A stretch of 20,101 nucleotides of DNA, from UHGV virus genome UHGV-1687506. One strand, written 5' to 3'. Origin of the DNA: a virus. The position numbers and the translations under genes are program-made. Shown here piece by piece: positions 1,869 through 18,342 of this stretch. The stretch's first letter is position 1. Each line of letters opens with the position of its first letter. A model generated the notes under the pieces. That model had not been told where the DNA came from and searched no databases. It worked only from the letters and a program-made list of their open reading frames with translations.

Positions 1869-2162
1869 TTATTGTGAGCAATACACCCGCGCTTCCAGCG
1901 GAGTATAAATGCCTAAGGTAATAAAACCGAGCAATCCATTTACGAATGTTTGCTGGGTTTCTGTTTTAACAACATTTTCTGCGCCGCCACAAATTTTGGC
2001 TGCATCAACAGTTTTCTCCTGTCCAATTCCCGAAACGAAGAAATGATGGGTGATGGTTTCCTTTGGTGTTACTGCTGTCGGTTTGTTTCCAACAGTAAAC
2101 GTCTGTTGAGCACATCCTGTAATAAGCATTGCCAGAGCGGCAGAAAACAACATTTTTTTCAT
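1869..2162 (-). CDS. bor: Bor outer-membrane lipoprotein (serum-resistance moron)
   Basis: Track ORF 1869..2210 trimmed to the MKKM start. The 97-aa product has a LITGC lipobox and is near-identical to lambda Bor. It is convergent with Rz, as in lambda, and AGGA precedes the ATG. Confidence 0.9.
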   Translation of the reverse strand: MKKMLFSAALAMLITGCAQQTFTVGNKPTAVTPKETITHHFFVSGIGQEKTVDAAKICGGAENVVKTETQQTFVNGLLGFITLGIYTPLEARVYCSQ

Positions 2163-12350: not shown

Positions 12351-12706
12351 TGGCACGTATCGGGGGAACCTGTTATTTCAAAATTGACGGTCAGCAGCTA
12401 TCGCTGACCGGCGGCATTGAGGTGCCCATGAACAGGACGGTCAATGATGACATCATCGGCCTGGACGGTTCAGTGGACCGCAAGGAAACTCACCGTGCGC
12501 CCTATGTCAAAGGGACCTTCAAGGTGCCGAAGAATTTTCCGGTGAGCAAAATCACCTCGTCTGATGAGATGACCATCACTGCCGAGCTGGCGAACGGTCA
12601 GGTCTATGTACTGTCGTCTGCCTGGCTGCACGGCGAAGCGAACCATAATGCCGAAGAAGGCACGGTCGATCTTGAGTTCCACGGTGAAGAAGGGGATTAC
12701 CAGTAA
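12350..12706 (+). CDS. Tail tube protein (Mu gpM-like)
   Basis: 118 aa, TAATG overlap with the sheath stop, GAGGAG ribosome-binding site, conserved position after the sheath gene. Confidence 0.8.
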   Translation: MARIGGTCYFKIDGQQLSLTGGIEVPMNRTVNDDIIGLDGSVDRKETHRAPYVKGTFKVPKNFPVSKITSSDEMTITAELANGQVYVLSSAWLHGEANHNAEEGTVDLEFHGEEGDYQ

Positions 12707-12975
12707 TGAAAGAGCTTGAGTTAAAGAAACCGATTACCGCTCATGGCGAGACACTCTCCGTACTGGAGTTTGATGAGCCCACCGGGAAAGATGTCCGCGA
12801 GCTGGGGTATCCCTACCAGATGAATCAGGATGAGTCCGTCAGACTTCTGGCGCATGTGGTATCGAAATACATCGTGCGGCTGGCGAAAGTGCCGCAAAGC
12901 TCTGTCGACCAGATGTCTCCGGCAGACCTGAATGCAGCGGCGTGGCTTGTGGCCGGTTTTTTCCTCCAGGCCTGA
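12706..12975 (+). CDS. Tail assembly chaperone, short form (lambda G analogue)
   Basis: 89 aa, TAATG-coupled to the tube gene and located directly upstream of the tape measure gene. It ends 10 nt after a T-rich slippery site. Confidence 0.7.
   Translation: MKELELKKPITAHGETLSVLEFDEPTGKDVRELGYPYQMNQDESVRLLAHVVSKYIVRLAKVPQSSVDQMSPADLNAAAWLVAGFFLQA
12957..12963 (+). promoter_or_regulatory. Candidate -1 ribosomal slippery heptamer T_TTT_TTC
   Basis: The sequence fits X_XXY_YYZ in the zero frame of the chaperone (codons TTT TTC at 12958-12963). Slipping back one base gives FFPPGLTAEY... in the overlapping frame. Confidence 0.55.
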
Positions 12976-13124
12976 CGGCTGAATACCTCACTGATCGCTT
13001 CTTTGACTGCGCCAGTTACTGGCGCATTAATCCTTTCGAATTGCTGAATATGCCGATCAGTGAAATTCCCTTACTGGTCAGTCAGGCAAACAGGATAGAG
13101 CAGGAGAAACGCACACATGGCTGA
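12957..13124 (+). CDS. -1 frame extension of the tail chaperone (lambda GT analogue), predicted to be made by programmed frameshifting
   Basis: The -1 frame is open from 12942 to 13124 and overlaps the end of the chaperone ORF across the heptamer T TTT TTC (12957-12963). Its stop overlaps the tape measure start. Confidence 0.55.
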   Translation, partial: FFPPGLTAEYLTDRFFDCASYWRINPFELLNMPISEIPLLVSQANRIEQEKRTHG

Positions 13125-14952
13125 ATTTGAGCTTAAGGCGTTGATCACCGGTGTCGACAGGCTTTCTCCCGCGCTGTCGAAAATGCAAAAGAAAATCCGG
13201 GGATTTAAACGCCAGGCGGAAGAAGCGTCACAGGGTGGGCTGGCGCTTGGTGGCGGACTGGCAGCGGGTCTGACGCTTTCCCTGAAATCTTATGCCGATC
13301 AGGAAAACGCCGCCACCGGGCTGAAAGTCGCCATGATGGATGCGAACGGCGAGGTTGGAAAGAGCTTTCAGGACATCAATAAACTGGCTATTGGCCTGGG
13401 TAACCAGCTACCCGGTACAACGGCTGATTTCCAGAACATGATGCAGATGCTGGTGCGTCAGGGGATCCCGGCAGAAAACATTCTGGGTGGTGTGGGTAAA
13501 GCGACAGCTTATCTTGCGGTACAACTGAAAAAAACACCGGAAGCGGCTGCTGAGTTTGCTGCAAAGATGCAGGATGCTACCGGAACGGCGTCAGAAGACA
13601 TGATGGGGCTGTTCGACACTATCCAGAAGGCGTTTTATCTGGGCGTTGACGATACCAACATGTTGTCCTTCTTCACTAAAACCAGTTCTGTTCTGAAGAT
13701 GGTGAACAAGGACGGTCTTCAGGCTGCACAGAGCCTTGCCCCCATCAGCGTCATGATGGATCAGATGGGGATGAACGGGGAGTCGGCAGGTAATGCCCTG
13801 CGAAAAGTTATCCAGTCCGGATTAAGCGTTAAGAAAATCAGGGACGTCAATAAAGTCATGGCCCGCCAGAGACTCGGGGTACAGCTCGATTTTACTGACG
13901 GCAAAGGAAGTTTTGGCGGTCTTGATAACATGTTCAGGCAACTGGCAAAGCTGCGAAAACTGACCGACGTTAAGCGAACAGGTGTACTTAAGGCAATATT
14001 TGGTGATGATGCCGAAACCCTTCAGGTGGTCAATGCACTAATCGATAAAGGAAAGGATGGCTACGATCAGATCCAGCAGAAGATGAATAAACAGGCCAGC
14101 CTGAATAAACGTGTTCAGGCCCAGCTTGGTACGCTGTCCAACCTGTGGGAGGCAATGACGGGGACCGCAACTAACGGCCTTGCGGCTATTGGCGGCGCAT
14201 TTTCTGGTGACGCCAAAAATATCACGCAATGGCTGGGGGAGTTGGGGGAGAAATTCACGAAGTTTGCGGATGAAAATCCCCGGGTTATTCGCGGCGTCGT
14301 CGGGCTTGCTGCCGGTCTTGCGATTCTGAAACTGGGATTGATGGGCGTGGGCAGTGCCATCAGTATTGTCAGCAGGATCATGTCGATGACGCCGATTGGC
14401 ATGATTGCGACGGCGATAGCCCTGGCTGCGGGATTAATTATCACTAACTGGGATGTTGTTGGACCTTATTTTAAGAAACTCTGGGAAACCATTGGTCCTT
14501 ATTTTGAGGCTGGCTGGGAACTCCTTAAGAAAGTTTTTGCCTGGTCGCCGCTGGGGATGGTGATCAATAACTGGGGGCCGGTTGTTAAGTGGTTTCAGGA
14601 TATGTGGGACAAGCTGAAGCCAATTATTGAGTGGTTTACCGACAGTTCCGGTGACACGGTCGATGCCATTAACTCTGCGCAGTGGGGCGCGGGTGCTTAT
14701 GATGCTTATGGGACGGGAATATCGGCGCGGGGATACATACCTTATCCGGTGGTGGATCTGGCTCAGTCAAACAACGCCTCCGGTGCCACAGGCCCGAATC
14801 CCTTCATGATTAACAAAGCTTCTGCGCCAAAAGTTGATGGTGAGATCAAGGTCTCTTTTGTGAATTCGCCTCCGGGTATGCGGGTTATGGAAACGCGATC
14901 CAGCGGTTTTGATGTCAGCCATGATGTTGGCTATACGCGCTTTGGCAGGTAA
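13117..14952 (+). CDS. Tail tape measure protein
   Basis: 611 aa with Ala/Gly/Leu-rich repeats, a hydrophobic segment (VIRGVVGLAAGLAILKLGLMGVGSAISIV) and Trp-rich periodic motifs. It lies after the chaperone pair. Confidence 0.9.
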   Translation: MAEFELKALITGVDRLSPALSKMQKKIRGFKRQAEEASQGGLALGGGLAAGLTLSLKSYADQENAATGLKVAMMDANGEVGKSFQDINKLAIGLGNQLPGTTADFQNMMQMLVRQGIPAENILGGVGKATAYLAVQLKKTPEAAAEFAAKMQDATGTASEDMMGLFDTIQKAFYLGVDDTNMLSFFTKTSSVLKMVNKDGLQAAQSLAPISVMMDQMGMNGESAGNALRKVIQSGLSVKKIRDVNKVMARQRLGVQLDFTDGKGSFGGLDNMFRQLAKLRKLTDVKRTGVLKAIFGDDAETLQVVNALIDKGKDGYDQIQQKMNKQASLNKRVQAQLGTLSNLWEAMTGTATNGLAAIGGAFSGDAKNITQWLGELGEKFTKFADENPRVIRGVVGLAAGLAILKLGLMGVGSAISIVSRIMSMTPIGMIATAIALAAGLIITNWDVVGPYFKKLWETIGPYFEAGWELLKKVFAWSPLGMVINNWGPVVKWFQDMWDKLKPIIEWFTDSSGDTVDAINSAQWGAGAYDAYGTGISARGYIPYPVVDLAQSNNASGATGPNPFMINKASAPKVDGEIKVSFVNSPPGMRVMETRSSGFDVSHDVGYTRFGR

Positions 14953-14975
14953 TGAAAAATTAATCTGTTAATGAG

Positions 14976-14997
14976 TCCCACTCCGGTGGGATTTTTT
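14976..14997 (+). terminator. Intrinsic terminator-like hairpin after the tape measure gene
   Basis: TCCCAC-TCCG-GTGGGA (6-bp stem, 4-nt loop) is followed directly by TTTTTT. It sits in the 60-nt gap between the tape measure stop and the ATG at 15013. Confidence 0.5.
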
Positions 14998-15012
14998 ATG
15001 TACGGAGTTTAT

Positions 15013-16319
15013 ATGACGTGGAAAGACAGATTTCAGGACGCGTCATTTCGCGGTGTGCCGTTTAAGGTTGAAGAAGAAAGTACGGGAACCGGTCGTCGTG
15101 TGGAAACGCACGAATACCCGAACCGCGACAAACCCTATACCGAAGACCTAGGGAAAATCACTTTCCGCCCGTCCATCACGGCTTATGTGGTGGGAGATGA
15201 CTGCTTTGACCAGCGCGATCGCCTGATTAACGCGCTGAATAAACCCGGTCCCGGCACGCTTGTCCATCCGACTTACGGTGAGCTGAAAGTCTGTGTTGAC
15301 GGAGAGGTTCGGGTCAGCACATCGAAGAGTGAAGGGCGTATTGTCCGCTTTGACCTGAAGTTTGTCGAAGCGGGAGAACTCTCTTACCCCACATCAGGTG
15401 CGGCGACGGCGCAGACGCTGATGTCATCCTGTTCTGCACTGGATGACTGCATCAGTGACAGTTTCAGTAGTTTCAGTATCGATGGCGTGGCAGATTTTGT
15501 GCAGAACGACGTCGTCGGTAATGCCAGCACAATGCTTGGGTATGTTTCTGATGCGATGAAAGTGGTGGATTCTGCCGTATCGGATGCCGCCAGGCTGTTG
15601 CAGGGGGATATCTCGGTACTTCTGCCGCCGCCATCGTCAGGCAAAAATTTCGTTGAGCAGGTGCAGAAAATGTGGCGTACCGGGAAGCGCCTTTATGGTA
15701 ACGCCAGCGACCTGGTCACCATGATCAAAACGCTTTCCTGCAACCGCGCGGCGTCTGGAAAACGGACAGTAAAACCACCGCCACGGCTACGCAGCAGCGT
15801 AACGTGGTTGCCAGCACCCTTCGTACGACCGCAATCAGCGAAGCGGCGTATGCCGTCACCCGATTGCTTGCGCCAACAACTTCCGCGGTGATGCAGAATG
15901 CCGCAGTGGGGCAGGCAACAACACCTGCGCAGAGCACTGGCTGGCCTTCCGTCACGAATCCGGCACTGAACAATGCACCGGCGGTGAAAAACACAGTTGA
16001 CCTGCCGACGTGGGAAGAACTGACTGACATTCGCGACACACTGAATACGGCAATTGATAAGGAGTTGTCCCGTACAACCAGTGATGCGCTGTTTCTGGCG
16101 CTGCGCCGGGTGAAAGCAGATCTGAATGCGGATATCAACACGCGCCTTGAACAGTCTGCACGGATCATTCAGCGCACGCCGGATGAGGTTTTACCCGCGC
16201 TGGTGCTGGCGGCGACCTGGTTTGATAACGCGGCGCGTGACGCGGACATTATCCGGCGTAATGCCATTACGCATCCCGGCTTTGTGCCGGTGATCCCTCT
16301 GAAGGTGCCAGTGCAATGA
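15013..16319 (+). pseudogene. DNA circulation protein (Mu gpN-like) interrupted by a frameshift near 15735-15755
   Basis: The N-terminal part (track ORF 14971..15891, real start MTWKDRFQDASFRGVPF at 15013 with GGAG upstream) and the C-terminal part (frame of track ORF 15804..16319, open from 15702) are in different frames. Plausible protein sequence switches from one frame to the other inside CAACCGCGCGGCG, and each frame turns to R/P/S-rich nonsense beyond the switch. Confidence 0.7.
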
Positions 16320-17395
16320 ACGACAATGTCACGCTACGGGTAAATGGCCGGGAGTGGAATGGCTGGACATCGGTGCGCATCGGTGCCGGTATTGAACGGC
16401 TGGCGCGGGATTTCAGTGTGGAGATCACTCGCCAGTGGCCGGGAGATGAGGGTATCACCACGCTTCAGCCGCGCATTAAAAACGGTTCAAAAGTGGAAGT
16501 GCTGATTGGTGATGAGCTGGTGATCACCGGCTGGGTGGAGGCGACTCCCGTTCGTTACGATGCCCGTTCGGTCAGCACCGGTATTGCCGGACGTAGTCTG
16601 ACGGCTGACCTGATTGACTGTGCAGCCGAACCGACACAGTTTAACGGACGCTCGCTGGTGCAGATTGCGCAGGCGCTTGCTGCGCCTTTCGGCATTGAGG
16701 TGGTGAACAGCGGTGCGCCGTCGGGTGTTATTCCTGATGTTCAGCCTGATCACGGTGAAACGGTGATTGAGGTAATCAACAAAATACTCGGTCAGCAGCA
16801 GGCACTGGCTTACGACGACCCGCACGGCAGGCTGGTGATTGGCGGTATTGGCTCAACGCGGGCACATACTGCGCTGGTACTTGGGGAAAACATCCTTTCC
16901 TGCGATACGGAGAAGAGTATCCGGGAGCGATTTTCTGTTTACCAGGTGGCGGGGCAGCGTGCCGGAAACGACGATGATTTCGGTGAGGCCACCACCACCG
17001 CGCTGCGGGCCCGCACAGAGGACGCATTTATTGCCCGTTACCGTCCGATGTATATCAGGCAGACAGGGCAGGCTACGGGGGCAGGCTGTATTGCCCGTGC
17101 GGACTTTGAAGCCCGACAACGGGCGGCGCGGACGGATGAAACCACCTATGTGGTGCAGGGCTGGCGACAGGGTAACGGTACGCTGTGGCAGCCCAACCAG
17201 CGGGTGATTGTCTTTGATCCGGTCTGTGGTTTCGACAATACCGAACTGCTTGTTTCGGAAGTCACGTTTACTCAGGACCAGAACGGCACCCTGACGGAAA
17301 TCCGTGTCGGCCCACCTGATGCTTATCTGCCTGAACCCGAAGATCCCGGTGCGCGGAAAAAGAAAAAAGCCAGAGTACAGGAGGACCCGTTCTGA
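16316..17395 (+). CDS. Baseplate hub protein (Mu gpP / gp44-like)
   Basis: 359 aa, ATGA-coupled to the upstream gene, in the conserved position after the N-like gene. Confidence 0.8.
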   Translation: MNDNVTLRVNGREWNGWTSVRIGAGIERLARDFSVEITRQWPGDEGITTLQPRIKNGSKVEVLIGDELVITGWVEATPVRYDARSVSTGIAGRSLTADLIDCAAEPTQFNGRSLVQIAQALAAPFGIEVVNSGAPSGVIPDVQPDHGETVIEVINKILGQQQALAYDDPHGRLVIGGIGSTRAHTALVLGENILSCDTEKSIRERFSVYQVAGQRAGNDDDFGEATTTALRARTEDAFIARYRPMYIRQTGQATGAGCIARADFEARQRAARTDETTYVVQGWRQGNGTLWQPNQRVIVFDPVCGFDNTELLVSEVTFTQDQNGTLTEIRVGPPDAYLPEPEDPGARKKKKARVQEDPF

Positions 17396-17943
17396 TGAGG
17401 ACGATTGAAGCCATGCAGCGACAACTTCTCGGCCTGATTGGGCGGGCAGTGGTGAAAAGCATCAGTGCCGCCACGAAATGTCAGACCGTGGATGTGTCCC
17501 TGATTGCCGGTGAACCCAAAGCCGGGGTTGAACATCTTGAACCCTACGGTTTTACCGCAAGGGCAAACAGCGGTGCGGAAGCGGTGGTGTTGTTTCCGGA
17601 TGGCGACCGTTCTCATGCGGTGGTTGTTACGGTGTCGGACCGGCGCTACCGCCTGAAAGGGCTGCAGACGGGTGAGGTGGCTGTCTATGACGATCAGGGG
17701 CAGTCTGTGACGCTGACCCGGGAGGGGATCGTGGTGGACGGTGCAGGTAAAACGATCACGTTTCGCAATGCGCCCAGAGCACGTTTTGAAATGGACCTGG
17801 AAGTGACCGGACAGGTGAAAGACCTGTGCGACTCCGGCGGTACCACCATGTCAGCGATGCGGCTTGCCTATAACGGGCATCGTCACAGAGAGAACGGTCA
17901 GGGCAGTAACACCGACAAACCTGATAAAGCGATGGAGGCATGA
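17395..17943 (+). CDS. Baseplate spike / assembly protein V (Mu gp45-like)
   Basis: 182 aa, TGATG overlap with the upstream stop, conserved order. Confidence 0.8.
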   Translation: MRTIEAMQRQLLGLIGRAVVKSISAATKCQTVDVSLIAGEPKAGVEHLEPYGFTARANSGAEAVVLFPDGDRSHAVVVTVSDRRYRLKGLQTGEVAVYDDQGQSVTLTREGIVVDGAGKTITFRNAPRARFEMDLEVTGQVKDLCDSGGTTMSAMRLAYNGHRHRENGQGSNTDKPDKAMEA

Positions 17944-18342
17944 TGGAACTGTGGCTGACGGTGAACGGTAAACGCACCTGCGCCAGCGCAGAACTGGATC
18001 CGCTGACCCGCGCCGTGGTGATTTCCCTGTTTACCTGGCGGCGGGCGGAGCCTGATGACAACGCCGACGTCCCGATGGGATGGTGGGGGGATACCTGGCT
18101 CCCGACTGTGGCTGCTTCAGCGCAGCAAACTGACCAATCAGATGGTGCAGACGGTAAGGGGGTATATCCGCGAATGCCTGCAATGGATGATTGATGACGG
18201 CGTGGTGTCCCGTATTGATCTGGATATCCGCCGCACCGGGATTAATGAACTGGGTAACAGTATCACTCTCTGGCGTCGTGACGGACCGGTAACGATTTCT
18301 TTTGATGATCTGTGGAGTGCGATAACGCATGGCGGACAGTGA
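17940..18342 (+). pseudogene. Mu gp46-like baseplate protein interrupted by a frameshift at a G6 run (about 18085-18090)
   Basis: Track ORFs 17940..18194 and 18055..18342 are in different frames. The N-terminal half is plausible in the first (...PMGWWG) and the C-terminal half in the second (...[15 protein letters not shown]...[11 protein letters not shown]). The switch maps to TGGTGGGGGGAT. Confidence 0.7.

Follow-up and report, generated by a model that had tools for sequence, protein, structure and literature searches.

The Tail Module and the N-like Gene

The stretch of DNA analyzed here (the window; 20,101 bases) is the late region, with lysis, head, and tail genes, of an E. coli/Shigella prophage of the SfV-like kind, whose head is HK97-type and whose contractile tail is Mu-type. 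The window is 99.7% identical over its whole length to prophages of E. coli PCN061, W21, and 4012, and both the gene order of the tail module and a nucleotide identity of 95.8%–96.5% to SfV, SfI, SfII, and SfIV identify it as an SfV-like myophage. In the PCN061 prophage, genes for terminase, portal, HK97 protease, and capsid are followed by Mu-like tail genes. The synteny of the window is that of the SfV type, running from sheath, tube, chaperone, and tape measure through N and P to gp45, gp46, gp47, and gp48. The SfV-type relatives have a single intact N open reading frame (ORF), whereas the window lacks 22 bp in N and 26 bp in gp46. The features of the window that enter the analysis are listed below.

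1709–1764, + strand: patch at the 3′ end of Rz, 56 extra bases relative to the nearest relative
12706–13116: tail assembly chaperone gene, with a slippery T TTT TTC at 12957–12963, near the gene end
13117–14952, + strand: tape measure gene, immediately upstream of N; intact
15013–15738, + strand: 5′ part of the N-like gene, codons 1–242 in the native frame (ORF listing and three-frame translation)
15737–15738, + strand: deletion junction; 22 bases, corresponding to codons G243–D249 plus 1 nt, are missing, with a C microhomology
15739–15891, + strand: last 50 aa of the truncated product, read out of frame (CNRAASGKRTVKPPPRLRSS...QQLPR) up to TGA 15889–15891
15738–16319, + strand: 3′ part of the N-like gene, codons 250–442 plus stop; intact, but shifted to −1 with respect to the 5′ part
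16316–17395, + strand: P/gp44-like baseplate hub gene; intact, followed by gp45, gp46, gp47, and gp48
17943–18342, + strand: gp46-like baseplate wedge gene, with a private 26-bp frameshifting deletion at 18096/18097 and a GGC microhomology

The disrupted gene is a Mu N-type (gp43 orthologue) DNA circulation/tail-tube initiator gene. Mu gp43 is the baseplate centerpiece and was historically known as a "DNA circularization" protein. The first-pass annotation had named the gene Mu N-like, and this identification was upheld by domain content, by alignment, and by position. The Pfam domain DNA_circ_N (PF07157) was found at residues 7–93 of the 5′ ORF (E = 7e-34; 116.6 bits against a cutoff of 21). 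The solved Mu N (9ki1, six chains) was matched with E = 8e-14, residues 10–433 of the intact orthologue aligning with residues 26–485 of 495. Apart from the 22 bp and one substitution, the orthologue used for this alignment matches the window, and its similarity to Mu N is colinear through the C-terminal helix-rich/LysM region. The gene shares with Mu gp43 a C-terminal ...LPALV...RRN.I..P.FVP motif and a position, in a Mu-type tail module, between the tape measure and the P/gp44 hub genes. The two proteins differ in length (495 aa in Mu versus 442 aa in the SfV type), their central region is poorly conserved, and the ORF is whole in Mu but broken in the window.

Both parts of the broken gene carry recognizable family sequence. 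The 5′ part matches phrog_184 at positions 3–231 and the 3′ part at positions 262–408; the latter also matches phrog_17109 (E = 1e-101) and codes for the helix-rich part, together with a conserved motif at the C terminus, LPALVLAA...RRNAITHPGFVP. The Pfam LysM domain gave no sequence match on the C-terminal piece even at E ≤ 10, and the LysM assignment therefore rests on the Mu structure (PMC11915804). In that structure, gp43/N is the hexameric tail-tube initiator and consists of an N-terminal tube-like β-barrel domain, a flexible loop, and a helix-rich domain in which eight helices are combined with a LysM module (PMC11915804). The helix-rich domain extends downward so that the three-helix bundles of the wedges are embedded in it, and gp46 occupies the corner formed by the two gp43 domains (PMC11915804). 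Assembly as a hexamer at the tail-tube base and the non-covalent circularization of injected DNA are known for Mu alone (PMC11915804).

More distant relatives were found for the N-terminal domain only. The N-terminal ∼150 residues align with the "baseplate centerpiece" gp25 of phage Milano (8fqc) and with 9rku, a "putative tail biosynthetic protein" (E = 2e-7 to 2e-8). The Milano-type architecture is nonetheless alike, with a tube initiator that bears LysM in its C-terminal domain and no separate BH1a protein (PMC11915804).

Loss of 22 bp Breaks the Reading Frame of N

The likely start of the N-like gene is ATG 15013, which is preceded by GGAG 6 nt upstream and is identical to the PGAP start in PCN061; in the ORF listing the same frame is also open from 14971. 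Three-frame translation gave native residues up to ...DLVTMIKTLS, the S codon occupying 15736–15738. Past the junction, the upstream frame yields R/P/S-rich nonsense until TGA 15889–15891, while the −1 frame reads LQPRGVWKTDSKTTATATQQRNVVASTLR... from 15738 and remains open to the stop at 16317–16319. The two Mu N-type domains are thus not contained in a single uninterrupted ORF, the frame shifting at codon 243.

Alignment to PCN061 and SfV located the cause. The window lacks CGGTGTCAGCCTCGGCAGCGAT (22 bp) in one clean gap with otherwise identical flanks, and the missing bases amount to seven codons (GVSLGSD) and one base. The junction lies directly after TTTC(C), at 15737/15738 or, owing to a one-base C ambiguity, at 15738/15739. 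With the 22 bases restored, the ORF encodes 442 aa from the PGAP start and 447 aa from the start of SfV orf15.

These results amend the first-pass annotation at several points. It had correctly described a protein-like frame that degenerates after ...DLVTMIKTLS and resumes one nucleotide out of phase, and the alignment of both halves to intact homologues that it proposed indeed fixed the position of the lesion. It had, however, suggested a 1-nt indel, where the homologues reveal a single 22-bp deletion. It had also put the junction within the GC-rich CAACCGCGCGGCG, a stretch that lies downstream of the break and is unchanged relative to intact homologues, and the ∼435 aa it expected of a restored ORF fall short of the actual length. 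The case it had named as refuting its reading, that intact homologues are naturally split into two genes at this point, was rejected for close relatives, because SfV orf15, SfI_0017, and WP_047928518 of PCN061 are single ORFs.

The intact form of the gene is widespread. Megablast of 14971–16319 retrieved 12 phage records (SfV, SfI, SfII, SfIV, and relatives) and 1,105 E. coli records, in which both halves match one single-ORF gene at >95% nucleotide identity. Over N, identity to SfV orf15 (AAL89424), SfI/SfII/SfIV, and WP_047928518 of PCN061 is 95%–98% with the 22-bp gap counted as mismatch. For 12/12 phage records and for the 40 best of the 1,105 E. coli records, the span in the record was 22 bases longer than the matching part of the window (1,371 versus 1,349 among full-length matches), and in each match listed a single coding sequence, "DNA circularization/tail-DNA circulation," is annotated at the N-like region. 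Flanks with the 22 bases present were found in ∼1,060 complete E. coli genomes and the 12 phage records. When a 60-mer centered on the junction was searched, each of the 1,067 records hit aligned to it as two separate 30-nt halves; both 30-nt flanks were present in 931 records and, in 30/30 of the matches listed, stood 82 rather than 60 bases apart.

The deleted form, in contrast, was not encountered. A junction 46-mer (23 nt per side), which is able to seed on the deleted allele only, had no match in 5,426 complete E. coli genomes, 50,697 phage records, and 72,556 plasmids. The exact 38-mer of the N junction was not found in GTDB species representatives, IMG/VR, or JGI metagenomes, and none of eight exact ORF products of the window (0/8) occurred in a collection of 15 billion proteins. 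The deleted N allele thus appears private to this source, in the sense of being absent from the collections searched.

A protein homology search for N returned only fragments of ≤329 aa and zero full-length proteins, and it is therefore unusable as an unbiased census of intact versus broken genes; the absence of full-length N from this search is odd in view of >1,000 annotated intact copies. The intact state of N was documented from RefSeq and GenBank annotations. The retrieved remnants comprise RusA-N fusions, internal deletions, and N-terminal truncations, with Shigella forms that have many members, and many truncated or fused remnants sit on long E. coli and Shigella contigs. Those on public E. 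coli/Shigella contigs include proteins P0006, P0012, P0013, P0021, P0025, P0008, and P0043. The number of such remnants in E. coli and Shigella indicates that decay of N is common in prophages of this kind. PHROG 17109 and short database proteins were also considered as separate C-terminal genes and were rejected, since the sequences retrieved are remnants or truncated ORFs.

Origin of the Deletion

In the full alignment over 20,101 bases, the window differs from PCN061 at nine places; six are substitutions and the other three are indels, of 56, 22, and 26 bp. No indel length is divisible by three, and each indel lies in a lysis or morphogenesis gene. Indels of 1–2 nt are absent across the 20 kb, which indicates that the assembly is not generally indel-prone.

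The 26-bp deletion breaks the gp46-like gene in much the same manner as N. Its product comprises 51 native and 32 out-of-frame codons and stops at 18192–18194, the 3′ part (18097–18342) being in another frame, so that ORFs 17940–18194 and 18055–18342 are the two halves of one gene. Pfam GP46 (PF07409) was found on aa 21–52 only, and phrog_180 was matched at positions 3–62 and 69–147. The gp46 junction was likewise not found in complete E. coli genomes, GTDB representatives, or metagenome contigs. The third indel, private to this lineage like the gp46 deletion, alters the spanin gene Rz, whose 3′ end is a mosaic (1695–1780): a Rac-type Rz contributes 18 codons of its 3′ end, and these run into the lambda-type 3′ end in a different register. 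The C terminus changes from ...INEQCR* to ...YITERG*, with loss of the terminal ...EQCR and its C-terminal cysteine. Rz also carries a private A→P substitution at 1578.

Neither deletion shows the direct repeats of at least ∼6 nt or the significantly stable hairpin that would mark a repeat- or hairpin-driven hotspot. No direct repeats flank the N-like deletion (microhomology 1 nt only) or the gp46 deletion (microhomology 3 nt only), and the two deleted segments fold no better than shuffled sequence (z = 0.44 and 0.71). Microhomologies of 1–3 nt are typical of spontaneous deletions.

Each of the two frameshifted genes also has a window-specific, derived, nonsynonymous substitution past its deletion: H→N at 15957 in N, 220 nt downstream of the 22-bp deletion, and M→T at 18293 in gp46, 197 nt downstream of the 26-bp deletion. 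PCN061 and SfV have the other allele at both sites, as does SfI at 15957. Such substitutions past each frameshift would be expected from relaxed constraint on a dead gene. The probability that at least two of four substitutions fall inside the two dead genes is 0.04, a weak enrichment in a post hoc test, and clustering of indels and substitutions gave P ∼0.003–0.01 in a test that was chosen post hoc and rests on four substitutions. It is conceivable, though improbable, that each pair of indel and substitution is the scar of one localized mutagenic event and not of independent neutral decay. Such an event would involve repair of a break by microhomology end joining with error-prone resynthesis, possibly after attack on the prophage by a nuclease or by self-targeting. 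Substitutions are also present beside the third indel, in Rz.

The deletion is probably genuine in the DNA. The first-pass annotation had left the choice between an inactivating lesion in an essential tail gene and an assembly error; the frameshift should indeed inactivate the gene, and of the two an assembly error is the less likely. An artefact of assembly or consensus would mean that the real DNA contains the 22 bases and that assembly or polishing removed them. Neither junction occurs in any other record, as expected from an artefact of one assembly, and many E. coli carry two to three related SfV-like prophages, which complicates assembly. However, sequencing errors are typically 1–2-nt homopolymer indels, of which the 20 kb hold none relative to the nearest relative, and graph or overlap assemblers collapse at repeats of at least overlap length. 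Loss of 22 bp with a 1-nt microhomology and no flanking repeat is untypical of such errors; the gp46 deletion is independent of it and similar in kind, both being bounded by identity of 1–3 nt only, with no flanking repeat and no strong hairpin. Two separate, similar deletions, each with a derived nonsynonymous substitution downstream, fit real decay better, and we consider an artefact unlikely. The best reading, to which we assign a probability of roughly 0.8, is a genuine N pseudogene in a decaying, tail-defective SfV-like prophage.

Two further explanations would allow N to function despite the break. The gene might work as two pieces that assemble like the separate tube initiator and BH1a of Pam3- or E217-type baseplates, and in other simple myophages these functions do fall to two proteins, a tube initiator and a small one apart from it (PMC11915804). 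The shifted frame ends at a stop that overlaps a native-frame ATG (TGATG, 15889–15893), at which reinitiation (ATG 15891) could give a C-terminal fragment of 142 aa, and PHROG 17109 consists of C-terminal fragments of 204 aa that are annotated as genes of their own. The TGATG is a chance termination-reinitiation configuration. Yet close relatives with >95% nucleotide identity are all single-ORF, and neither GTG 15804 nor ATG 15891 is preceded by a Shine-Dalgarno motif. At least seven native residues are deleted and ∼48 more (codons 250–297) are in neither product, ∼55 missing in all, while 50 nonsense residues are appended to the N-terminal product. The allele is found nowhere else and hence gives no sign that selection has retained it, the short C-terminal fragments inspected are visible deletion or fusion remnants, and the neighboring gp46 is frameshifted too, all of which makes a working two-piece N very improbable. 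Programmed −1 ribosomal frameshifting, which would restore full-length N, is compatible with the relation of the two frames, the downstream frame being −1 relative to the upstream one, with an open overlap from 15702 to 15888. Inspection of 15702–15888 by eye revealed no X XXY YYZ slippery heptamer, however, and the intact homologues are single-frame and need none. The break coincides exactly with the deletion relative to these homologues, and their alignment effectively refutes frameshifting in N. The window itself demonstrates what a real site looks like, at T TTT TTC (12957–12963) in the chaperone gene, where the heptamer is the conserved G/GT-type programmed frameshift. The −1 frame ORF of the chaperone (FFPPGLTAEYLTDRFF...EKRTHG*) ends just short of 13117, where the tape measure gene starts.

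Predicted Consequences for the Prophage

The N locus is a pseudogene of the Mu N/gp43 family and not a functional member of it. For annotation, ORFs 14971–15891 and 15804–16319 should be merged as one N/tail-tube-initiator pseudogene. Translation from ATG 15013 would give 242 native and 50 nonsense residues. The truncated protein would keep the tube-like β-barrel domain and ∼100 further residues and would lose the C-terminal 193. Since the C-terminal helix-rich/LysM domain of Mu clamps the wedges, assembly of the baseplate and tail should fail without this part. Without a stable connection between hub and wedge, no functional baseplate or tail would be formed, and we infer from this comparison with Mu that N has lost its function.

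An effect on the gene downstream is possible as well. The ATG of the hub gene overlaps the native stop of N (ATGA), a position that would normally place it for translational coupling to N, so that the break may be polar on the hub gene. The hub gene does have an AAGGTG motif of its own, however, 8 nt upstream.

Because gp46 is also broken, the prophage should be tail-defective. Taken together, the deletions in N and gp46 and the mosaic Rz point to a prophage that is decaying under relaxed selection and would form no infective tailed particles. The N defect might be complemented if the genome also contained a second SfV-like prophage that is intact; among the E. coli records, up to three copies of such prophages per genome were found.

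The lineage may have been fiber-defective already before the deletions in the window occurred. In PCN061 (L003), just past the point where the window ends, the fiber gene after gp48/YmfQ (21958–22260) is annotated as an incomplete stfP pseudogene and is followed by mosaic fiber fragments. Within the window, a gene for an iss/bor-like "increased serum survival" lipoprotein (∼1869–2162, minus strand) adjoins the lysis cassette. The PCN061 copy is identical, and the gene represents intact cargo amid decaying structural genes.

Small frameshifting deletions in structural genes, with cargo left intact, are also seen in other defective or cryptic E. coli and Shigella prophages (e14, SfV-like remnants). 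Unlike in those prophages, decay is early here: besides the three indels, the 20 kb are collinear with an apparently intact relative.

With N and gp46 frameshifted and the 3′ end of Rz altered, the prophage is best scored as probably tail-defective. Plaques, or spread of the iss/bor-like cargo by virions, are unlikely unless a related prophage helps. The Mu N family, its structure and role, and the decay of prophages by small deletions are already known, and only this allele is new. The finding adds nothing to the understanding of Mu-type baseplates; it is one more case of early prophage decay via small out-of-frame deletions.
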